Shown here: in pieces, positions 42,069-64,000 of the stretch
Layout: the number at the start of each line of letters is the position of its first letter
Position numbering within the stretch: position 1 is the first letter of the stretch
Origin: Pirellulaceae bacterium
GTDB lineage: Bacteria; Planctomycetota; Planctomycetia; Pirellulales; Pirellulaceae
Direction of reading: 5' to 3'
Length of the DNA stretch: 64,000 bases
Assembly: GCA_041741535.1 (NCBI GenBank)
Contig: JBGSJV010000027.1
Span: forward strand, 12,837 to 76,836
Position numbers and translations under genes: made by a program
Notes under the pieces: generated by a model
Seen by the model: only the letters and a program-made list of their open reading frames with translations
Databases searched by the model: none
Told to the model about the DNA's origin: nothing

Positions 42069-42626
42069 ATGTCCGAAGGTAAGACGACCATTCTGGTCGA
42101 GAGCTGGTTAAAACCCCTGCAAAACCCGGATTCCGATCAAGGTCGGCAGGCACGCAATGAGCTGATTGAGCATTCGCATCGACGGATGAAAGCGATGTGT
42201 CACAAGATGTTCTTTTCGTCGTTGAAGAGTAGCGGGGTCGTCGACTGGGAGGACGTCTACCAGGAGGCGGCACTAAAACTCTGGAAAGCTCTGGCTGATG
42301 CAAAACCTGACAGTGTCCGACAATACTTCGGACTCGCGACGAAAAAAATTCAAGAAGTCTCAAAGGACATGTGTCGCAAATACGTGCGAGATCTACCCGA
42401 ATTGACGGCCGCGGATGCATCGCACAGTCCGGTGACTGCTGCCATGTGGACCGAATTTCATGAGAAGGTGAAAGCGCTAGATGATGACTTGCGTGAAACC
42501 TTTGAGCTCTTGTGGTATCACGGATTGACTCAAAAAGAAGCGGCAGCGATTCTGGAGGTGGACGAGTCCACGGTCAAACGCCGCTACGGTCGAGCCAAAG
42601 AGAAGATGGTCGACTTCGTTTTGTGA
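42069..42626 (+). CDS. ECF-type sigma-70 family RNA polymerase sigma factor
   Basis: The region 2-like segment (VDWEDVYQEAALKLWKAL) and the region 4 HTH (LTQKEAAAILEVDESTVKRRYGRAKEKM) are recognisable. AAGGAG lies 8 nt upstream of the ATG. Confidence 0.75.
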   Translation: MSEGKTTILVESWLKPLQNPDSDQGRQARNELIEHSHRRMKAMCHKMFFSSLKSSGVVDWEDVYQEAALKLWKALADAKPDSVRQYFGLATKKIQEVSKDMCRKYVRDLPELTAADASHSPVTAAMWTEFHEKVKALDDDLRETFELLWYHGLTQKEAAAILEVDESTVKRRYGRAKEKMVDFVL

Positions 42627-42789: not shown

Positions 42790-45700
42790 ATGTTTGAAAA
42801 TGAGAAACCCGATTCTTTGTCTGATTTGTGGGAATTGCGTCAAAAACAGAATGCTCCCCCAACGTCGTCGGATATGAATGGCGGATCGCCGGAATCAGAA
42901 CCGCAGGTAGTGGAGCGTGCGGCCAAACGAAAATTGTTCGACAGCGTGTTTGGACCCGATCTGGACACCATCCCGAACCGGCCCGACGAGATCGGTGAGT
43001 TCTGCAACGGCCGCTACAAAGTCGAAGCATTATTTGACGAAGGGGGCCTCGGGGCGCTTTATTTGGCACGCGATACAGAGTTGGGGCGATTGGTTATTGT
43101 GAAAGCGATTCGCGCCTCCCATTCGGACGACCACGACAGCCAACGACAATTCGTCAACGAGGCCGCGATTACCGGCCAATTGGAACACCCCGGAATCGTG
43201 CCAATTTACGGTTTCGGCCGTGACCAACACCGGCGACCGTATTACACAATGCAGAAGATCAAAGGAACGAAACTGAGCGAGGAGATCCGTCAATTTCATG
43301 AGCATCGCGCCAACGACGGTGGACACATCAAAGCGTTCCAAAGGCTGCTGGAAGATTTTCGATCTGTCTGTTTGACCATTCATTTCGCACATAGCAGGAA
43401 TGTAATCCACCGAGATATCAAGCCTGATAACATCATGGTGGGCAAGTTCGGCGAGGTACTGGTCATCGACTGGGGTCTGGCAAAGCAGATTTCGGCGACG
43501 GATAGTCTCTCGGCGCCTGCTCGCGATATGCCACAGGTCGACGAATTTGAGCCGATTGCAGTTCCCAATGCTTTTCAGACCCGTCACGGGGCGGTCAAGG
43601 GCTCACCGATTTATATGAGCCCCGAACAAAGCGAAGGCAGCACGGCGAAAATCGGGCCGGCCAGCGACATCTATGGACTGGGCGCGACCCTGTACCAAGT
43701 AGTCACGGGTCGCCCGCCGTTTGAGGGCTCGAGTCAAGAGGTCCTGTTGCAAGTCAAAGAGGGGAAAGTGAGGCCGCCCAGTCAAGTTGCAGCCGACGTT
43801 CCTTTGGCGCTCGAGGCAATCTGCTTGAAAGCCATGCAACGCGATCCAGATCAGCGTTACCAAACGGCCAAGGATCTAGCGGAAGACGTCGAATGCTTCC
43901 TGGCTGGCGAGCCCGTCAGTGCGTACAACGAACCTTGGACCGACACAGTCCAGCGTTGGGGGCGACGGAATAAAACTCTGGTCGCGAGCACCATAACATT
44001 CTTTATGGTGGTTTTAGTGGCTTTGGTAAGCACTTCAGTGTTGTTGACCAAGTATAACGCTGACCTGTTCATCGCGAAAAATGCAGCAGAAACGGCAACG
44101 ACGGCGGAACAGCAGCGAGCGAACGAACTCGAAAAATCGCTGTATGTCAACCAAATCATGCTCGCCCAAGCCGCTTGGAATGAACCTGACTTGCATCGGA
44201 CGTCCGACATTCTGGACGCTACCACACTCGGCCGAAGATCACTGGAATGGAACTATGCGAAACGACTCGTTACGCGAGTCAACGATCTGGCATGGAACCA
44301 GCCGCCGGCGATTGAGCCAACCTGGATTAATAGTTTGACTTCAAGTGCAAATGGAGCCTGGTTGATGGCGACCTTCGAGCAAGAGAGTGCCTTCGAACCT
44401 GGAAAGTTTCACGAACCAATCAAGGTGATTCCAACAACCGACAATGTCTCTCGCGTTCCAAAGCTCTCCTTGATTAGTTTGGCGGCAACATTTGGGGTTC
44501 CGGCCCAGATTCTCTGTTTTAGCCCGAGCGGCGACGAAGTACTGTGCCGAGTGCCCAGCGAGAATGGCGGCACTGAACGACAATACCGTCTCGCACTCGT
44601 GGGAATCCAAACGGGACAAGCCATCTGGCAAACCGAACCACTGACCGACGACAGCACCAGCATCTTCAAGGCAGGCTTTCTGATGCCAGAACCAATTGCC
44701 GATCCATTGAAATCTCCGCAGGTTGGGGAGTCGCCCGATCGTCAGTCAGGATCGCAGATCGTCGTTATGACAGACCCGCAAGTAATATCTCCAGAGCTGG
44801 GGACAACTGGCCGCGTCGCTCGAATAGAATTTCGCGATGCGCTTACCGGAGGGTTTCTAAAGACATTCGAAACTAATACCAATATTGTTGCTGAGCGAGC
44901 GTGCTTCAGTCCCAATGGGCAGCGAATCGCGTTGATGGACATGCTGAACGTTACGGTGTTTTCGGTCATCGCTGACGATTCTCCCCAAACGCTGACCGGG
45001 GACAACGGGTTCTTCTTCTGCGATGTAGCGTTTAGTCCTGACGCATCACTCATGGCGACGGCCAGTGCCGATCATGCCGTACGGATCTGGGATGCGGTCA
45101 GCGGTAGTTCGATCCAGGTACTATGGGGAATGCGCAAGCGGGTTCGTTGCCTGGCGTTTGATCCAAGCGGGAATAGGATTGCCGCGTGTGGCGAAGAAGG
45201 CGCTATCCGTATTTGGGATCTGAAGGACGGAAAACTGTTGAACGTACTGCCTACGAAAGATACGGAAACATATACGATCACATTTAGTCACGATGGCTCC
45301 CAGATTTACTCTGGAGGCAGCGACGGAGTCATTCGCCATTACGACTTGGATGAACCTCCCGTTGCCAGGACCATTCAGCACGAAAACCGTGTGTCCCAAG
45401 TTCAATTAAACTCTCAGGGGGACACGATAGCGGCGATCATCGGATGGGCAGAAAACAGTAAAGTATGTGTCTATGATCGGCAAAGTGCGCGGCTTAAGTT
45501 CGAGACTGACCTGTACGATGCTCGTTATCCGTCGGAAGCACTCTTTGTCGGTGATATTGACTTCAGTCCCGATGGGAAAACGCTGGCGATCGGTGGTGAC
45601 AATGTTGTGCATCTGGTGGATGCAGATACCGGGGCCAAACGCTGGGAGCACCGAGGTCTGGAAGGTCGGTTGAAATTCACTTCCGATGGGAGACATCTGA

Positions 45701-46494
45701 TCGCATCGCGAAAAAGGCGTTTTTTCATTCAGGTGATCAAGGAAGAAGCACTGTTGGATCGAGTTCTCGGAGCCGAAGCGAAAGAAGTCATTGGAGAGGT
45801 TGTGCAGAATTGGGAAGAACGGACACTCGATAAGAGGTTGTGGTACGATGATGGAGACGAAAAGATCTTGCAGTACTTAGCGAAGGACCCTGGCAACGAA
45901 CAACTGATTGCATTGATCACCAGTAATGCTCGAAGTGCACAGGTGACTGTAGACGTCTCCGCCGGGAAAATCCAAAAGGTGCTCGATTGCGACGCCGTTT
46001 TTGGCAACGCAATTGCACTTCATCCGAGTTTGCCAGTCATCGCTGTCGCCGAAAACGACAGAGTCAGCTTGCGGGATATCGATTCGGGTAAGTCCTTGTC
46101 TCAGCTTGAAATAGGCGTGGAACGACCGACACACCTGGCATTCAGTCCAGACGGCAACCGTTTGGTCCTCTCATCTGAATGGGAAAGCACCGTGGCGGTT
46201 GTCGACATTGAGAGTGGAACAGCGGCCTTTCGTCTCGTCGGGCATGTCGGTGGTGTCATGCATGCAAGTTTTTCGTTTGATGGCAAGCGTATTCTGACTT
46301 GTGCGACCGATGGAAAACTTCGGATTTGGGATGCTGACAGCGCGACTCTGTTATGGGTCATCGATGAATCTCAAATGCCACTGAACTCATTGTCGGTCAG
46401 TAGCGATGGCCACTACCTAGTGGCTGGAAGCGGCCAGCGCAATGGAGTCGGCGGCGGATCAATCTTGTTATGGGACTTGGAACCGGAGAAATAG
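42790..46494 (+). CDS. Ser/Thr protein kinase - TM helix - WD40 beta-propeller protein
   Basis: GGLGALYLARD, VIVKAI, HRDIKPDNIMV, DWGLAK, GSPIYMSPEQ. TM helix LVASTITFFMVVLVALVSTSVLL. WD40-like repeats: AVRIWDAVSG, AIRIWDLKDG, VIRHYDLDE, LRIWDADSA. Confidence 0.9.
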   Translation: MFENEKPDSLSDLWELRQKQNAPPTSSDMNGGSPESEPQVVERAAKRKLFDSVFGPDLDTIPNRPDEIGEFCNGRYKVEALFDEGGLGALYLARDTELGRLVIVKAIRASHSDDHDSQRQFVNEAAITGQLEHPGIVPIYGFGRDQHRRPYYTMQKIKGTKLSEEIRQFHEHRANDGGHIKAFQRLLEDFRSVCLTIHFAHSRNVIHRDIKPDNIMVGKFGEVLVIDWGLAKQISATDSLSAPARDMPQVDEFEPIAVPNAFQTRHGAVKGSPIYMSPEQSEGSTAKIGPASDIYGLGATLYQVVTGRPPFEGSSQEVLLQVKEGKVRPPSQVAADVPLALEAICLKAMQRDPDQRYQTAKDLAEDVECFLAGEPVSAYNEPWTDTVQRWGRRNKTLVASTITFFMVVLVALVSTSVLLTKYNADLFIAKNAAETATTAEQQRANELEKSLYVNQIMLAQAAWNEPDLHRTSDILDATTLGRRSLEWNYAKRLVTRVNDLAWNQPPAIEPTWINSLTSSANGAWLMATFEQESAFEPGKFHEPIKVIPTTDNVSRVPKLSLISLAATFGVPAQILCFSPSGDEVLCRVPSENGGTERQYRLALVGIQTGQAIWQTEPLTDDSTSIFKAGFLMPEPIADPLKSPQVGESPDRQSGSQIVVMTDPQVISPELGTTGRVARIEFRDALTGGFLKTFETNTNIVAERACFSPNGQRIALMDMLNVTVFSVIADDSPQTLTGDNGFFFCDVAFSPDASLMATASADHAVRIWDAVSGSSIQVLWGMRKRVRCLAFDPSGNRIAACGEEGAIRIWDLKDGKLLNVLPTKDTETYTITFSHDGSQIYSGGSDGVIRHYDLDEPPVARTIQHENRVSQVQLNSQGDTIAAIIGWAENSKVCVYDRQSARLKFETDLYDARYPSEALFVGDIDFSPDGKTLAIGGDNVVHLVDADTGAKRWEHRGLEGRLKFTSDGRHLIASRKRRFFIQVIKEEALLDRVLGAEAKEVIGEVVQNWEERTLDKRLWYDDGDEKILQYLAKDPGNEQLIALITSNARSAQVTVDVSAGKIQKVLDCDAVFGNAIALHPSLPVIAVAENDRVSLRDIDSGKSLSQLEIGVERPTHLAFSPDGNRLVLSSEWESTVAVVDIESGTAAFRLVGHVGGVMHASFSFDGKRILTCATDGKLRIWDADSATLLWVIDESQMPLNSLSVSSDGHYLVAGSGQRNGVGGGSILLWDLEPEK

Positions 46495-55923: not shown

Positions 55924-57045
55924 ATGTCTGCATGCACACCAATGATTCGCGATCGCATTGCAAACTGCGACGAAACGGATTCGCGCACGCCCGTGGGCGG
56001 CAAGAGTGATCAAGAGTTGTTTGCCACAGATCACGAGCTCTCCAGCAATGATGTTCGCCAAGCCGCAACCGTCGAAAGTTTAGAAGACGCCAAAGCACTT
56101 GCAACCAATCTCGGCAACCTCTGCCGTGAAGCCGTTCGTGGGCGCGAAGACGTGATCGAGCTTGTCCTGATCGCTATGCTGGCAGATGGCCACGTATTGC
56201 TAGAGGATCATCCGGGCTCGGGCAAGACAACTCTAGCCAAGGCACTCGGTTCGGCAATTGACGCGGGAGTAACCGCCAGCCAAATATCGTCGTTTCGCCG
56301 GATTCAATTCACGCCCGATCTGCTCCCATCCGATGTGACCGGAACCACGGTATTCGATGGCGAAGCTAACCGATTCGATTTTCATCCGGGCCCGGTTTTC
56401 GCCAACATCGTGTTAGGCGATGAAATCAATCGTACCGGCCCCAAAGTCCAAGCGGCCTTGCTCGAGGCGATGGCTGAGAAGCAAGTAACGGTCGATAATC
56501 ACACCTATCAGCTCGATCCGCTGTTTTTCGTTTTGGCAACACAGAACCCCTTGGATCTGAATGGCACCTATCCCTTGCCGGTGGCTCAACTCGACCGTTT
56601 TTTGTTCAAGATCAAGATGAATCACTTGTCGCGCGAAAGCGAATTGGAGATTCTTGCCAGTCGTGGAAATGGTTGCCAACGATCCACGACTTGGAAAGTC
56701 AGCCCGGCAACGATTGTTGCCGCTCGAGATGTCATTCGCAAGCAAGTGCATATCGCGCCGGTGATTCATGAGTGCCTAGTCGATATTTCATTGGCGATGC
56801 GTGCGGACCGCCGAGTTGCGCAGGGCGTTTCCACCCGCTGTCTGGTGCTGGCCATCGACGCGCTAAAATCACGAGCAGCTTTGCATGGACGAGACTTTGT
56901 GTCGCCACGAGACGTCAAGGCGCTCGCATGCCCGCTGTTCAGTCACCGACTGCAACTAAAATCGGCTGGAGTCGATCCAGACCAGATCGTCGTCGAGTGC
57001 TCGTTACCGGTGATCGAATCGACGATTCGCAAGTCAATGAAATAA
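55924..57045 (+). CDS. MoxR-family AAA+ ATPase
   Basis: Walker A HPGSGKTTLAKALG; RIQFTPDLLPSDVTGT; Walker B/sensor VLGDEINRTGPKVQAALLEAMAEKQVTV; FFVLATQNP. GGAGAA upstream of the ATG. Confidence 0.9.
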   Translation: MSACTPMIRDRIANCDETDSRTPVGGKSDQELFATDHELSSNDVRQAATVESLEDAKALATNLGNLCREAVRGREDVIELVLIAMLADGHVLLEDHPGSGKTTLAKALGSAIDAGVTASQISSFRRIQFTPDLLPSDVTGTTVFDGEANRFDFHPGPVFANIVLGDEINRTGPKVQAALLEAMAEKQVTVDNHTYQLDPLFFVLATQNPLDLNGTYPLPVAQLDRFLFKIKMNHLSRESELEILASRGNGCQRSTTWKVSPATIVAARDVIRKQVHIAPVIHECLVDISLAMRADRRVAQGVSTRCLVLAIDALKSRAALHGRDFVSPRDVKALACPLFSHRLQLKSAGVDPDQIVVECSLPVIESTIRKSMK

Positions 57046-59182: not shown

Positions 59183-59253
59183 AATGGGTCGAGCGTTTCG
59201 AATAATTGCGCTGGCGCAATCTATTGCGTTCTCCCAAGAAGCGGAATATTTAC

Positions 59254-62200
59254 ATGGATTCGGATGAACTCGACGAAGATTTCCTTTCCTTTTCTTTCTC
59301 GAAAGAGTCGACTTCGAGCATTGAAGAATCGCATGTTCCCGGCAATTTTCATGAGCAATTAGGCATCCGGATTCAACCTACCTCTGCTGAGGAAATTCGG
59401 CGGGGATCGACGGGCGAGGTGCAAACAGATCGATTTTTTTCAGCCGATCGAAAGAGCTTTCATCCAAAAGGGCTGTTTAGCGAGAAGATCTTCGGACTCA
59501 CATCGGATTGGAAACATTCGAAAATCACTGCGCAGTCGCCGGTCGGTCATATTGAGTTGCCAGTCCCGATCGTGCATCCTCTTTTTCAAAGCGGACTTGC
59601 AGGTCAAGCGGTTCGTGCAGTGCTGGGGCTCACGGAAGCAGAACTCGATCAACTGTTAAAGGGTCGGGGGTGCATCGTCACCGAACCCATGGACTCCGGC
59701 TGGTCATGCGGAGCTATCGTAACCGTTGACGCGTACCAAACAGCCGCCAAGAAGTATGGGGCAGAATTGGCCCCTTTGTACCAAGCCGAGGCTGTTCGTT
59801 GGTTGATGGGGCGAGCCACGTTGGATGCGTCGATCGCACGCGCCAAACTCGTTTCTCCTGACAACAGCGGAGTTGTAAGACTAATTCGCAAATGGTTCGA
59901 GAGGGGGCGTAGACTCGATTCGGTGATACTCGACGTTCTCCCCGTCATTCCACCGGCGATGCGTGCGATGCAACGCACATCATCGGGCGAGCTGCGACGA
60001 CACGATCTCACCTGCTTGTACCAAAAAGTGGTTCGCCGATGCGGTCGAATTCGAAAGCTAGTCAAACTTGACGCTCCCTCGGTGATCTTAAGGAATGAGG
60101 CTCGATTGTTGCATGAGGCCGTCGAAAATTTGCTCGTGAAGCCGTCGAAGGCCGATGAATACAAATCCAAATCGCGGCGGTTTATGCCGCTTCTGCAAAC
60201 TCTACAAGAATCGCATACTCCACTGTGCGAAGAGGGACGCACGAAGACGTGGAAGAATTCATTGCGACTGCCTGCATCGCCCAATCCCAGACTGCGAATC
60301 ACTCAGTGCGGCCTACCGCGAACAGCAGCGACGTTGGAAATGCTGGCGCCAATTTGGCTGGCACATTGCAAACAGATCGGACTTGATCCGAGTCTTGCGG
60401 AATGGCAATTACGACATCCGACGGCATCGGTGTGGGAAGTGATCGCGTTGCAACTCCCCTGGCACGCCGTCTTGTTGAGACACGAAGCCCGTCGCAGCCA
60501 ATCGTCGCTACAGGCCTTTCAACCCAAGCTGGTGGACGGCAGAGCCATACAGCTTTCGCCGCTTGCACTTGGTGCCCTACGTGATGGTTCGATCCAAGAG
60601 GACGTATCGGTCTTTCTGCTCCAATCGCGATCGGCGTGCAGCCAAGCTTTGGTTGAGATGTTAGCAGATCAATGCCGCAACTCGGCCAGTGGTAAGCTTG
60701 CCTATCAACCAACCTTGGATATGGTAACGGGCTGCTTTTTAATGACACGCGATCCATTGCCGATTTCTGAGGGTTTGTCACGCAGACCACTTCACTTGGG
60801 TGCAATGGCGTTTCGCACGATGGCCGAAGTGCAGAGTGCATTGGACCAACGCGTGGTATCGTGGAATTCACCGATTTTGTTTTATCCCGATCGACGCACG
60901 TTCGCCGAACAACCGCTGTGCGAAAAAGTCTGTGCCCACCGTCAACGGATCGGGACGACTCCCGGTCGCGTGATCTTCAACGATTTCTTCCCTTTAGAAT
61001 TGCCATTCGTCAACTACCAGGTCACGGAAAACTCTTTCGGCGACCAACTGGAAGCGACTCACGCAATCATCGGCGCGACCCGCACACGCCAACTGATTGA
61101 CGCCCTGCAAGCGACTGCACTTGCCGTGCTAACGCAATCCGGTCTCAGCATCTCGATCTCGGATTTGGCACCTCCACGAAGGAAGCCAGCCATCCTCGAT
61201 GAAACAAACAAGCAGATCGTTAAATTGAAGAGGTATTATGATCGAGGAATTATCTGTTCAATGGAACGACTTAATCAAACCTACGATGCTTGGACGAATG
61301 CATCGAAGATCCTAAATCAGGAAATAGCAGTTCAGTTGTCAAGTGAGAGTAAGAATCCTACCTCGCTATTTGCGGCTGTGGCCCACACTACAAGCATGAC
61401 TTGGGTACAACACCTATGCGGCATGTTCGGTATAGTCCTGCCGCCCGATCGCAGAATTCACGAAGTAGCCGTTACCTCCAACTGGGGAGAAGGCTTGAGC
61501 GTCAGAGAATATTGGCAGGTTGCACTACAGACGCGGCACTTCACCATCGATGAATGCAAACGGACTGAAGACGCGGAGCAGATCACACGAACTTTGTTGA
61601 GTGCTTTGCAAGACGTCACCATTACCGTAGCCGATTGCGGAACGACCGAGGGAATCGAAAGGAGTAGCTCCGCTGACAAGAGCCTATCCGAAGCTTTAAT
61701 TGACCGAATCAGTTGCGAAGCGATTGTCAACCCAATCAACGGTGAGCCGCTCGTACAAGTTGGGGAACGGATCACGGCGGAAATCGTTCAAGGATTGGCT
61801 TCGCTCAACGTTCAGAAACTGCGTGTGCGTAGCCCTGCGACATGTGATTCCGAGCGAGGCATTTGCCAACAATGTTATGGTCGCAACCAATCGACGGGGG
61901 AATTGACTGAAATAGGCACATCGGTCGGTGTGAATGCCGCGTACGCCCTCGGGGAGTACGCCCACCATTTGCTGAATTGGTATAAGATTCGGGAATACCG
62001 AGCACCGCGGTTTGGATGGGTGAATGGAACAGAGCGTGCCGATTGCTCAGGGAATATTCAGTTCCAACTGCCGAGGACGGTTCGCAAACAAGATGGACGA
62101 ATTGTCGCACTGCAGCCTGGCAAAATATTAATACGAGATCGATATCGAATCCTGCAAGAGATCGCCGTTCCAGTTGGCGCCGAGGTTCTTGTCCGTAACG

Positions 62201-63354
62201 AAGCGGAAGTACGTCGCGATGACGAGATTTGTAAGTGGAATACAAATGGAATACCCCTGATCGCGGAAAACGCCGGCTCGATCATACTCCGTGATTTTGT
62301 TCCGGGAGATAATTGTCGATATTCGGATGACTCCGATACCAACAAGTTCGTCACATCTGATCTGACACGAGGGACATTGCGGCCGCGTGTCTTGATCCTC
62401 AATGCGGCCGGGCAACCGATCGAAGCGCATTACCTGGCTGACCATTCCGTTGTTGAGGTGGTTGACGGCCAGTCGGTGGCCGCGGGAGACATGCTCGCCC
62501 TGCAGCTCAATCGTTCGTCTCTATTGGAGGATCGCGCGTCAGAGGCTCAGACGGTATTTGGTTGGGAATTACAAGAATTGCTGGAAGCAGGTCCGACTCA
62601 TGAAACGGCGGTCTTGGCACCCTGCGACAGCGTCGTTTCTTCTGTTGAGCGAAAGGGAGAGCATCGAAAAGTTGTATTGCAAAATGTAGACCGCGAGGAA
62701 TTTGAATTTGTGTTGTCACGAAACGCCCATTTGCAAGTGATCGTTGGAGACGCGGTTAAACCAGGCGATCCGCTGACGGATTCTAGGCAAATCAACCCTA
62801 ACGATATCTTTCGTATCTTAGGGGTGGAGGCAGGTATTCTGTATCTGTTGGGAAGGCTTTCTCGATTGTTTGTAAAAAATCAAATCTCGATAGACAGCAA
62901 GCATATGGAGCTTGTGATTGGCAGGATGCTTTCCCGCGTCAAAATCGATCACCCAGGTGACACCGATTTTGTCGCAGGCGAGGTGATCGAACGCATCGAT
63001 TGGCGGAGAGAGAACGACCGGATTAACCAGTTTGTCCGCATCGCGTCTTCCGAGGCCTCCAAATCTACTGTTGATCAGATTGTTCGACGCGAGGCTTACG
63101 AACTTCTCGCCCGCGAACTGACTTCGCAGAACCAGGCGCCCCCAACCGTACGACGCTCGCGTCCGGCGAGGGCAGCGGCGCAGTTGACGAGTATTCAACA
63201 CCTTGTGAACCCGCACAAACAAGGACGGCGCTCAGGCGAATTCGACGTCGACGTTTTGGCCCGACTCGTGTTGGCTGGGGATGTCAGCTCCATAAACCGA
63301 TTAATAGATCTGATTGTGCGAACCAGCAATGGTGGTACGCGTTGCCGTCCATAA
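59254..63354 (+). CDS. Full-length RNA polymerase beta-prime (RpoC) paralog lacking the catalytic NADFDGD triad and N-terminal Zn ribbon (predicted pseudo-enzyme)
   Basis: Collinear RpoC landmarks: FHPKGLFSEKIFG, VGHIELPVPIVHP, VLPVIPPAMRA, ILRNEARLLHEAVENLL, RITQCGLP, LQAFQPKLVDGRAIQLSPL, ADCGTTEG + CDSERGICQQCYG, KHMELVIGRMLSRVKI. The catalytic loop reads RDGSIQE (60580-60600). The ATG at 59254 is the likely start within the track ORF that begins at 59206. Confidence 0.85.
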   Translation: MDSDELDEDFLSFSFSKESTSSIEESHVPGNFHEQLGIRIQPTSAEEIRRGSTGEVQTDRFFSADRKSFHPKGLFSEKIFGLTSDWKHSKITAQSPVGHIELPVPIVHPLFQSGLAGQAVRAVLGLTEAELDQLLKGRGCIVTEPMDSGWSCGAIVTVDAYQTAAKKYGAELAPLYQAEAVRWLMGRATLDASIARAKLVSPDNSGVVRLIRKWFERGRRLDSVILDVLPVIPPAMRAMQRTSSGELRRHDLTCLYQKVVRRCGRIRKLVKLDAPSVILRNEARLLHEAVENLLVKPSKADEYKSKSRRFMPLLQTLQESHTPLCEEGRTKTWKNSLRLPASPNPRLRITQCGLPRTAATLEMLAPIWLAHCKQIGLDPSLAEWQLRHPTASVWEVIALQLPWHAVLLRHEARRSQSSLQAFQPKLVDGRAIQLSPLALGALRDGSIQEDVSVFLLQSRSACSQALVEMLADQCRNSASGKLAYQPTLDMVTGCFLMTRDPLPISEGLSRRPLHLGAMAFRTMAEVQSALDQRVVSWNSPILFYPDRRTFAEQPLCEKVCAHRQRIGTTPGRVIFNDFFPLELPFVNYQVTENSFGDQLEATHAIIGATRTRQLIDALQATALAVLTQSGLSISISDLAPPRRKPAILDETNKQIVKLKRYYDRGIICSMERLNQTYDAWTNASKILNQEIAVQLSSESKNPTSLFAAVAHTTSMTWVQHLCGMFGIVLPPDRRIHEVAVTSNWGEGLSVREYWQVALQTRHFTIDECKRTEDAEQITRTLLSALQDVTITVADCGTTEGIERSSSADKSLSEALIDRISCEAIVNPINGEPLVQVGERITAEIVQGLASLNVQKLRVRSPATCDSERGICQQCYGRNQSTGELTEIGTSVGVNAAYALGEYAHHLLNWYKIREYRAPRFGWVNGTERADCSGNIQFQLPRTVRKQDGRIVALQPGKILIRDRYRILQEIAVPVGAEVLVRNEAEVRRDDEICKWNTNGIPLIAENAGSIILRDFVPGDNCRYSDDSDTNKFVTSDLTRGTLRPRVLILNAAGQPIEAHYLADHSVVEVVDGQSVAAGDMLALQLNRSSLLEDRASEAQTVFGWELQELLEAGPTHETAVLAPCDSVVSSVERKGEHRKVVLQNVDREEFEFVLSRNAHLQVIVGDAVKPGDPLTDSRQINPNDIFRILGVEAGILYLLGRLSRLFVKNQISIDSKHMELVIGRMLSRVKIDHPGDTDFVAGEVIERIDWRRENDRINQFVRIASSEASKSTVDQIVRREAYELLARELTSQNQAPPTVRRSRPARAAAQLTSIQHLVNPHKQGRRSGEFDVDVLARLVLAGDVSSINRLIDLIVRTSNGGTRCRP

Positions 63355-63400
63355 CGCATCGAATTCTGGAGTGGGGTCTGTCGTTGCCGCTCTACCTGCT

Positions 63401-63450
63401 CGGGCTCGCTCTGTTGACGAAGTTGAGCCCGCGTCTATGATAGACGTTTT
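63401..63450 (+). terminator. Possible terminator region between convergent genes (two hairpins, the second followed by TTTT)
   Basis: cgggctc-17 nt-gagcccg (63401-63431), then cgtcta-tga-tagacg-tttt (63432-63450). The stems are short, so the signal is weak. Confidence 0.3.
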
Positions 63451-63493
63451 CTCAATTGTATGGCGCCCTCGAACCTGCACTTGGGAAGGTTTG

Positions 63494-64000
63494 CTATGGT
63501 GGAGACAATTTAGGGCGGGTTTGTAACGGCGCATCTCGCAACGAGCGTTGGCCTGTTCCGACTGGAATCAATCGGCCGAGCATCACGTTGGAATTGAGAC
63601 TACCGAGGTCGTCGGACTGACCTGCCAAGGCCGCATTAGCGAGGACCGCTCGCAAATCTCGATAGCTCGCTTCGGTCAGAAAACTGCCGCGACCGACGCC
63701 CGCTATGGTTATTCCCTGAAGCATAACCTTGCCGACAGCAGGTCTAGCCGGAGTGGACTCTGCAGGTCGTCCACCATTCTGACCAATATTCTGATTGACC
63801 TGTTCCAATTCTGTGGCCGAAACCAGTTCGCCAACTTGCAGACTCGAGTCGCCGCAATGTGTTACGCGGCGTAGTTGCCATAGTTCGTTATTCACACCGC
63901 GCAGCATTGATCTTTCGATGACGGTACCTATGACAAGGTGCGAATCGCCGGAGTCGATGATTTTGGCGCGACTAAACATACGGGAAATGACCAGTTCGAT
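63494..64000 (-). CDS. C-terminal part of a second RNA polymerase beta-prime-like gene (continues beyond the window)
   Basis: IELVISRMFSRAKIIDSGDS..., GITIAGVGRGSFLTEASYRDLRAVLANAALAGQSDDLGSLNSNVMLGRLIPVGTG aligns with the RpoC C-terminal regions. The reading frame is open to the window edge. Whether it is the housekeeping gene is unresolved. Confidence 0.7.
   Translation of the reverse strand: MELVISRMFSRAKIIDSGDSHLVIGTVIERSMLRGVNNELWQLRRVTHCGDSSLQVGELVSATELEQVNQNIGQNGGRPAESTPARPAVGKVMLQGITIAGVGRGSFLTEASYRDLRAVLANAALAGQSDDLGSLNSNVMLGRLIPVGTGQRSLRDAPLQTRPKLSPP

Follow-up and report, generated by a model that had tools for sequence, protein, structure and literature searches.

The window analysed here is a 64,000-nucleotide stretch of a Pirellulaceae genome (G000; GenBank assembly GCA_041741535.1, contig JBGSJV010000027.1, positions 12,837 to 76,836 of the forward strand) in which two genes for homologs of the β′ subunit of RNA polymerase (RNAP), copy A on the plus strand and copy B on the minus strand, lie adjacent and convergent. 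To our knowledge, β′ is among the most conserved of bacterial proteins and is normally present in a single copy. The minus-strand frame at window positions 63494-64000 is open up to the window edge, and its translation, ...GITIAGVGRGSFLTEASYRDLRAVLANAALAGQSDDLGSLNSNVMLGRLIPVGTG, was identical to the C-terminal sequence quoted in the initial annotation. The contig (C27; 94,983 bp, of which the window is C27:12837-76836) runs approximately 18 kb past the window end, and on this extended contig the frame is a complete open reading frame (ORF) of 1408 amino acids, copy B (C27:76330-80556, minus strand, equivalent to window 63494-67720). The 168-residue window fragment of B by itself matched no Pfam family. 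The source genome is a metagenome-assembled genome (MAG) of 196 contigs and 6.8 Mb, with 94.6% completeness and 3.45% contamination. Upstream of B we found a 197-amino acid ORF only, and neither rpoB nor rplL; the ORF had no family match and no homolog at other loci carrying genes of the B family. A promoter and terminator scan around B returned nothing exceeding shuffled expectation.

Copy B is not the housekeeping rpoC. A whole-genome search with Pfam Rpb1 domain 1 gave three β′-like loci, two of them on C27 (A and B) and the third on contig C144, and tblastn with five different β′-type queries returned the same three loci and none further. An Rpb2 domain 6 search, also of the whole genome, found a single rpoB adjoining the C144 copy, so that the count of homologs is one rpoB to three β′-like genes. 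The C144 cluster has the order nusG-rplK-rplA-rplJ-rplL-rpoB-rpoC; all six genes from nusG to rpoB exceeded the respective NCBIfam equivalog cut-offs, and NADFDGD (in NADFDGDQMAVH), a canonical trigger loop and FQETT are present in the rpoC frame. Against the whole-protein cut-off of 963.5 bits for TIGR02386, the NCBIfam rpoC equivalog, B scored 853.8, its ortholog P0004 scored 805.5 and A scored 502.5, compared with 1719.7 for the canonical planctomycete β′ of the genome that carries P0004 (G041). B thus differs from housekeeping RpoC in its TIGR02386 score, in the absence of NADFDGD, in its trigger loop and bridge helix, in operon position and in its lack of universality within the lineage.

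The initial annotation had offered two explanations for the pair of genes. The first, that B is the lineage's unusual housekeeping rpoC, was rejected: the canonical cluster is on C144, B lacks NADFDGD and falls below the TIGR02386 cut-off, and genomes of the same genus and family do not have the odd C-terminus. Nor is B a canonical rpoC in an rplL-rpoB-rpoC operon with a C-terminus shared by its relatives; the C144 gene fills that role. The second explanation, a divergent second RNAP-like gene set, stood in part: both genes are divergent and non-housekeeping, but no second rpoB-like gene was found in the genome and both active sites are degenerate.

Divergence at near-invariant positions, first noticed at the C-terminus, proved to be general. 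At window positions 63650-63664 B has YRDLR where the canonical C144 β′ has FQETT. In the same conserved region, H, LKENV is replaced by LNSNV while GRLIPxGTG is retained, and identity to P0004 is 65-75%. A near-invariant set of 391 positions was defined from 28 canonical β′ sequences of several phyla; B retains 56% of these and A 42%. Identities in end-to-end alignments were 37.9% between B and canonical β′, 28.8% between A and canonical β′, and 27.9% between A and B. Losses in B were uneven, with 4 of 20 invariants kept in the trigger loop, 6 of 21 in the rudder and switch-2, 16 of 33 in the F-loop and bridge helix, and 12 of 12 in the second Zn site. B also retains the four Cys of the N-terminal Zn finger (CxC...CxxC) and most of regions C, D and E. 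The catalytic loop NADFDGD reads GVEFNGE, the trigger loop has become SVFAVSDALEHKNLLLRTFKWG followed by an insertion of approximately 23 amino acids, and the C-terminal half of the bridge helix is replaced. The basic rudder/switch-2 segment has changed from KGKQGRFRENLLGKR to ERQLQRDIRTSFPLGKA, and the basic tail of the Zn-finger domain from SRVRRKR to HPRPQTS.

B nevertheless has the features of the β′/Rpb1 superfamily: its Rpb1 domains are collinear, and it has a pair of Cys4 Zn sites and the double-psi β-barrel fold. The Pfam domains of B are PF04997, PF00623, PF04983 and PF04998 (Rpb1 domains 1, 2, 3 and 5); Rpb1 domain 4 (PF05000) is not among its precomputed Pfam domains. A phmmer search of the PDB matched β′ chains with E-values of 1e-196 to 1e-206. 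An AlphaFold2 model of the 82% identical ortholog had a mean pLDDT of 72 and a pTM of 0.43, and with this pTM the global model was not used for surface or interface mapping. Its low-confidence segments are exactly the lid, the rudder/switch-2, the bridge helix and the trigger loop. The best Foldseek matches of the model were E. coli β′ chains (E approximately 1e-80), with a low global TM-score of 0.34 because the isolated model mis-packs its domains. In E. coli β′, single substitutions at D460, D462 or D464 abolish catalysis. We take B to be catalytically dead because the Asp triad, the trigger loop and the nucleic-acid contacts are all lost; from its sequence, neither template-directed RNA synthesis nor hybrid binding would be expected.

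To place B among known proteins, we used a word-indexed search of 5.8 billion proteins and an exhaustive HMMER search, which covered 1.84 billion cluster representatives. In the word-indexed search, only two proteins were nearer to B than canonical β′ is (approximately 38-39%). P0003 is 82% identical to B and lies at locus L008 on a 1.1-Mb contig of GCA_963852535.1; P0004, 61% identical and annotated 'hypothetical protein', lies at locus L007 on a 413-kb contig of the MAG GCA_041398825.1 (G041). Both retain QQFGVEF[N/S]GE and the altered region H. The HMMER search added P0165 (locus L026; 1409 amino acids, 41% identical to B and 34% to canonical β′), which has an LEFNGE loop and the same trigger-loop insertion as B. 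Window B, P0003, P0004 and P0165 form a clade at 100% SH-aLRT, and all four share the marks of the family, a G-[V/L]-E-F-[N/S]-G-E loop and a trigger-loop insert of approximately 23 amino acids (WGIG...P...E...). Peptide-pattern and degenerate-DNA scans of genome and metagenome contigs gave chance matches only, such as the HisS motif QQFGVEFFGE.

The B reading frame is under purifying selection. The Nei-Gojobori ratio of nonsynonymous to synonymous substitutions (dN/dS) was 0.26 for B and P0004 (dS 1.03) and 0.41 for B and P0003 (dS 0.24). In simulation, 5% neutral change already produced approximately 8 stop codons. Intact ORFs of 1408, 1428 and 1409 amino acids have persisted across dS≈1 and down to 41% identity, and, given the simulated stops, intact frames of 1408-1428 codons at such divergence require selection. 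The best-conserved blocks of the family are B residues 321-360 and 401-640, where B and P0004 are 78-88% identical, and in block 481-640 their identity exceeds that of the canonical pair of the same two genomes. Between B and P0165 the best-conserved block is the former catalytic barrel (residues 401-480; 57-65%). The replacements N452G, D454E, D458E and M460L are invariant in the family. Conservation is lowest in the sigma-docking clamp helices, with 36-38% identity compared with 95-97% in the canonical pair.

Copy A is more degenerate than B: NADFDGD is replaced by RDGSIQE and the N-terminal Zn finger is deleted. No ortholog of A was found in the 5.8-billion-protein set. The segment IELVISRMFSRAKIIDSGDSHLVIGTVIER of B had been described as closer to A than to E. 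coli β′; A and B share 18 of its 30 residues and, by a hand count, each shares 10 of 30 with the canonical sequence of the genome. In a sliding-window comparison, B 1212-1300 was the only flagged region in which A-B identity was above both A-canonical and B-canonical identity; an excess of A-B identity at the N-terminus was weaker and held against A-canonical only. No DNA similarity between A and B and no inverted repeat were found, the spacer included. A recent inverted duplication or gene conversion between the copies was rejected on the lack of DNA similarity and on the single short stretch of alike protein. The derivation of A from B by inverted duplication, proposed in the initial annotation, was likewise not supported: A is overall no nearer to B than to canonical β′, and the B family is present without A in another genome. 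Because A has neither the EFNGE loop nor the B-type trigger-loop insert, it is not derived from within the B family. The copies are alike as apparently dead β′ paralogs that carry the planctomycete insert and stand adjacent and convergent; they differ, at 28% identity, in that the N-terminal Zn finger, EFNGE loop and B-type insert are missing from A, which is also without known orthologs. At the sigma-contact positions of the clamp helices, A has diverged less than B.

In β′ trees under LG+G and C20 mixture models, the branches of A and of the B family are long and arise between the planctomycete β′ sequences and those of other phyla. The trees carry a long-branch-attraction warning, so that topology alone was not decisive and an insert character was used instead. 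An insert of 32+8 amino acids is present in canonical planctomycete β′, in A and in the close B orthologs (window B, L007 and L008). The other sampled phyla and two further paralog types, D and E, described below, lack it or have lost most of it, and in P0165 it is largely deleted. This shared insert indicates that A and B descend from planctomycete rpoC. Lying between regions G and H, the insert is also a useful signature for planctomycetal rpoC-derived genes.

The distribution of B is patchy. No B-type gene was found in 5 same-genus, 40 related or 400 other same-family genomes (126 genera); the type occurs in 1 of 401 same-family genomes, and the canonical gene of the others is 39-40% identical. 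Between the window contig and that of P0003, only the gene and a leader of approximately 35 nt are alike, and the flanks are unrelated. The leader lies directly before the B start codon (C27:80557-80600; L008:9960-10000), holds the palindrome TTCATTTGAA and could be an operator or a translational element. For the G000 and G041 pair, the proportion of synonymous differences (pS) was 0.80 (saturated) in canonical rpoC and 0.56 in the B genes, with a dN of 0.27 in both. In the protein tree, the canonical β′ of G041 branches outside the clade with the window genome's canonical β′. The lower synonymous divergence of B and the separate canonical branches therefore indicate that the B genes parted later than their hosts. 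Given the patchy distribution, the unrelated flanks and the more recent separation, B behaves as an accessory single-gene unit that was probably transferred horizontally.

Other β′ paralogs with altered catalytic loops were present in related genomes. In G329, a 'D-type' gene of 1126 amino acids (L019:7201-10581; G329:C479) begins at VDYSAR with the N-terminal third missing and has the loop DSEQDGD (FDSEQDGDQVTVY). In G144, an 'E-type' gene of 1247 amino acids (L020:1513-5256, minus strand; G144:C23) has the loop KSSHNNN and no Zn finger. Both are same-family genomes, and each also has a full-length β′ match, 38-39% identical to B, that we took as canonical. A D-type gene also lies 5 kb downstream of P0003 on the L008 contig. 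Among 61 cluster representatives examined from a search with a B ortholog, 13 lacked NADFDGD and 10 lacked at least one Asp of the triad; P0165, P0168, P0170, P0177, P0189, P0190, P0215, P0226 and P0246 are among those with altered loops, and P0168, P0170, P0190, P0215 and P0246 carry the planctomycete insert. In the 48-taxon tree, the D type groups with P0168 inside the planctomycete canonical clade, as do P0190 and P0215, and these placements therefore indicate several independent origins. Triad-mutated β′ paralogs seem to be a recurrent planctomycete trait. No description of a dead bacterial β′ paralog was found in the full-text literature searched.

Two further observations concern these contigs and the canonical genes. 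On L008, a 748-bp 3′ piece of a kinase-WD40 gene is duplicated at 90% identity (L008:7815-8561 and L008:18041-18784), the latter just upstream of the D-type gene; comparison with G329 suggests that the B ortholog and approximately 8 kb were inserted into an older cluster of kinase, transmembrane (TM) protein, 913-amino acid protein and D-type gene. Some canonical planctomycete β′ genes, among them P0074, P0086, P0090 and P0118 and those of genomes G289 and G147, have frames of 1700-1970 amino acids with C-terminal helix-hairpin-helix domains (PF14520, PF00633, PF14229), which is unusual for a housekeeping subunit.

Features of the two β′-like genes and of their surroundings, in window coordinates
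Feature	Position	Strand	Remarks
Copy A, 1382 amino acids (1366 from ATG at 59254)	59206..63354	+	putatively dead β′ paralog, tail to tail with B
Spacer, 139 bp	63355..63493	.	separates the stop codons of the two convergent genes; neither inverted repeats nor DNA similarity between A and B found
Copy B C-terminus, 168 codons and stop	63494..64000	-	tail of the 1408-amino acid putatively dead β′ paralog; gene runs off the window
B residues 1337-1390	63551..63712	-	equivalent of β′ conserved region H; FQETT to YRDLR (63650-63664)
B residues 1280-1328	63737..63883	-	planctomycete-specific 32+8-amino acid β′ insert, between regions G and H
B residues 1241-1270 (IELVIS...VIER)	63911..64000	-	conserved region-G helix; A/B 18/30, canonical 10/30
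ECF sigma factor	42069-42626	+	head of the same-strand run ending in copy A
Ser/Thr-kinase-WD40 gene	42790-46494	+	same run as copy A
MoxR ATPase	55924-57045	+	upstream of A; PF20030 (bpMoxR, MoxR-vWA-β-propeller ternary systems) above cut-off

The run on the strand of A consists of an extracytoplasmic function (ECF) sigma factor, a kinase-WD40 gene, two HEAT genes, a 440-amino acid protein without a Pfam match, a transglutaminase, the MoxR ATPase, a TM-anchored TPR protein and copy A. On the opposite strand are B and the 197-amino acid ORF, then NADAR, HEAT and WD40 genes. The order at L007 is ECF sigma, kinase-WD40, HEAT, DUF4419, B ortholog, trypsin-like, VIT-vWA, AAA_28 and WD40, and at L008 it is kinase-WD40, small TM protein and B ortholog. 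With L007, the P0165 locus L026 shares AAA_28 (72%), VIT-vWA (49%), WD40 and two small proteins. In this recurring set (L007:15355-23081, L026:7983-16354, C27:89206-92154) the small proteins have 174-240 amino acids, and a homolog of one of them adjoins a WD40 gene 10 kb from B (C27:90072-92154). NADAR genes lie near B in 3 of 4 loci. The D-type gene of G329 is preceded by a kinase-WD40 gene and a TM protein 76% identical to that of L008, and the E-type gene of G144 by a TM protein and a 1622-amino acid P-loop NTPase-WD40 protein (domains read from the sequence, not from Pfam). At P0190, an ECF sigma and a kinase-WD40 gene lie 3 kb upstream. No similar neighbours were found at L027 and L028, two other dead-paralog loci.

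Recurring signalling-gene neighbours of the dead β′ paralogs are suggestive; these genomes have approximately 72 kinase loci each, and any one adjacency therefore counts for little. A conserved operon with the upstream gene was rejected, as DUF4419 at L007, the TM protein at L008 and the window ORF are unrelated and the 220-amino acid protein at L026 is unmatched. The kinase, sigma and HEAT genes of the window and L007 were likewise rejected as orthologs: they are 25-39% identical, mostly in the kinase domain, and are of the same kind without being clearly orthologous. The ECF sigmas beside dead paralogs (L007:2565-3182 on the minus strand, window 42069-42626 and L029:698-1348) are approximately 25% identical, and at the sigma-2.2 'DAED' position they read RVSD (with Ser), DWED and DADD, respectively; by this motif, the L007 sigma alone looks like the phosphorylation-dependent type.

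We propose, with a probability of roughly 0.6, that B is a catalytically inactive β′ paralog of planctomycete origin that selection maintains and that acts as a binding mimic. B would work by binding and not by catalysis, occupying or titrating something that docks on β′. Paired with β, or with a β′-binding factor, it would form a transcriptionally inert complex, and during stress or conflict signalling this complex might act as a sponge or decoy. In RNAP, much of the part of β′ that corresponds to B 321-360 and 401-640 (barrel and funnel/dock) lies towards β and the secondary channel. The strongest constraint falls on barrel, funnel and dock and not on the clamp coiled coil, and we therefore favour β, or a factor recognising this face of β′, as the putative partner of B. 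A generic sigma sink appears less likely for B than for copy A because the clamp helices are least conserved in B. More broadly, planctomycetes may repeatedly turn rpoC duplicates into β′ mimics, with the B family as a mobile decoy or sponge wired to WD40-kinase/NTPase and vWA-AAA modules; this wider proposal is a tentative one, and we hold it at clearly less than even odds.

Several points weigh against a maintained binding mimic. The B family has four known members, and the dN/dS values of 0.26-0.41 indicate relaxed constraint. P0003 is split by two frameshifts, which may be assembly errors or decay; the L008 assembly has serial frameshifts in neighbouring genes too, and sequencing error is as likely as decay. 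The assignment of C27 and C144 to the same cell depends on the binning of a MAG, on similar composition and on an independent genome, G041, in which canonical and B-type genes both lie on long contigs. The neighbourhood associations, ECF sigma with kinase-WD40 and AAA_28 with VIT-vWA and WD40, are partial. The Glu/Asn/Glu of B could in principle still bind metal.

A more specific version of the mimic idea, compatible with it and in our view doubtful as a particular claim, is that B is the decoy or guard of an anti-phage or anti-competitor conflict system: an invader protein that binds or modifies RNAP would bind B, and neighbouring genes would read this out, candidates being the WD40 kinases or STAND NTPases, the vWA/AAA ATPases and NADAR. 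The patchy, probably horizontal distribution and variable flanks are consistent with such a system. So are the kinase-WD40 and small TM proteins beside dead paralogs at L008 and in G329, the NTPase-WD40 and TM proteins in G144, the AAA_28, VIT-vWA, WD40 and two small proteins common to L007 and L026 (with one small homolog near B in C27), the frequent NADAR genes, and the match of the MoxR upstream of A to bpMoxR. However, PADLOC-DB 2.0 had no match for A, B or the adjacent 197-amino acid ORF, and gave generic kinase-domain matches for the kinase-WD40 protein. The neighbour sets vary by locus, with nothing similar at L027 and L028, and neither phage nor mobile-element genes were found adjoining B. 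Planctomycete genomes abound in WD40, HEAT and kinase genes, so that chance adjacency is not negligible.

It is less probable still, and in our view unlikely, that an ECF sigma controlled by a neighbouring Ser/Thr kinase has B, or more especially A, as its partner or sink, the paralog keeping the sigma on its β′-like clamp, as an anti-sigma by mimicry, until a signal arrives. An ECF sigma and a kinase-WD40 gene occur in the run of A, directly upstream of the L007 B ortholog and 3 kb upstream of P0190; by a hand calculation with an assumed number of sigma-kinase pairs per genome, the chance of this at 3 of 9 loci is approximately 0.004. We take the sigma-contact sites of the clamp helices to be R275, R278, R293, N294, E295 and A302, in E. 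coli numbering. On this numbering and a hand-read alignment, A keeps the equivalents of all six. At R275, R293, N294, E295 and A302, A has R, R, N, E and A, the L007 protein has R, R, D, C and V, and B has C, I, D, C and A. In B the substitutions R275C, R293I, N294D and E295C weigh against B as such a sink, as does the low conservation of the family's clamp helices (36-38%). The three sigmas are only approximately 25% identical and differ in the DAED-type motif, window B lies 17 kb from the sigma gene on the opposite strand, and no sigma factor was seen at L026, L027 or L028. Kinase-regulated ECF groups without anti-sigma factors, which act via the sigma-2.2/β′ contact, are typical of planctomycetes (PMC8999054), and this would suit a sink of the kind described.

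That B is the catalytic subunit of an alternative RNAP, with Glu-Asn-Glu holding the metal and the single β as partner, is very improbable. B has the full length of a β′, is collinear with it and retains both Zn sites, and members of the B family show strong conservation of the altered loop. Nanoarchaeum RNAP is reported to be an active enzyme even though its active-centre motifs carry radical substitutions (PMC8204694). The trigger loop of B, however, has lost the catalytic Met, Arg and His, half of the bridge helix is replaced, the nucleic-acid-holding basic residues of the rudder, switch-2 and Zn finger are gone, and there is no second rpoB. Two of the three Asp have become Glu and the middle one Asn or Ser, changes of a kind that abolish catalysis singly in E. 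coli. Equally remote is the view that B is a decaying duplicate (a young pseudogene) without function, or an assembly or binning artefact: the relaxed dN/dS, the two frameshifts of the L008 ortholog and the MAG origin would fit it, but ORFs are intact across dS≈1 and to 41% identity where 5% neutral change would bring approximately 8 stops, the B-family motifs are conserved, the orthologs lie on contigs of 413 kb and 1.1 Mb, G041 has both genes, and the serial frameshifts of L008 suggest sequencing error. Contamination or mis-binning as the whole explanation was rejected: the composition of B (GC 52.6%, tetranucleotide usage near that of the host genome) matches the genome, the orthologs are on long planctomycete contigs, and one genome has the canonical gene too.

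The binding-mimic reading of B can be set beside known systems. B is collinear with planctomycete RpoC (e.g. Pirellula staleyi, P0082) at 38-40% identity, with Rpb1 domains, Zn sites, barrel core and insert in common. It differs in lacking NADFDGD and FQETT, in its degenerate trigger loop, bridge helix and rudder/switch-2, in the absence of PF05000 from its precomputed domains, in lying outside the rplL-rpoB-rpoC operon, in not being universal and in evolving several-fold faster. E. coli β′ proteins mutated at D460, D462 or D464 still enter the core enzyme and have a dominant-negative effect. Like B, as judged by its sequence, they are full-length β′ without catalysis, and they illustrate the possible effect of a naturally dead β′ that can still bind β. 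The E. coli mutants retain nucleic-acid contacts and promoter binding, whereas B is without the basic residues and mobile elements concerned, and because of these losses B is unlikely to be a DNA-bound roadblock. Second genes for core RNAP subunits are kept in other bacteria: actinomycetes have rifampicin-resistant rpoB paralogs. Francisella has two non-identical α subunits (PMC3294249). Both of these cases resemble B as second core subunit genes, but their products function in active polymerase, whereas B appears to be dead, accessory and patchy. The D-type and E-type genes, P0168, P0170, P0190, P0215 and P0246 are, like B, triad-mutated β′ homologs, most with the planctomycete insert; they differ from B in their separate tree origins and loops, and the D type in lacking the N-terminal third.

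P0004 carries the name 'hypothetical protein', P0170 and P0189 the name 'DNA-directed RNA polymerase subunit beta'', and such genes can therefore mislead rpoC-based phylogenetic markers and checks of MAG contamination. B would also be a natural 'dead' β′ scaffold for structural biology. A selected, mobile, non-catalytic full-length β′ with independent counterparts suggests that the largest polymerase subunit can be recruited as a pseudoenzyme. If B binds β, sigma or foreign RNAP inhibitors, it would offer a new handle on the regulation or defence of transcription capacity. If the wider proposal of repeated β′ mimicry is true, B and its relatives would make up a hitherto unrecognised class of proteins, derived from the catalytic subunit, that serve as regulators or immune sensors directed at RNAP.

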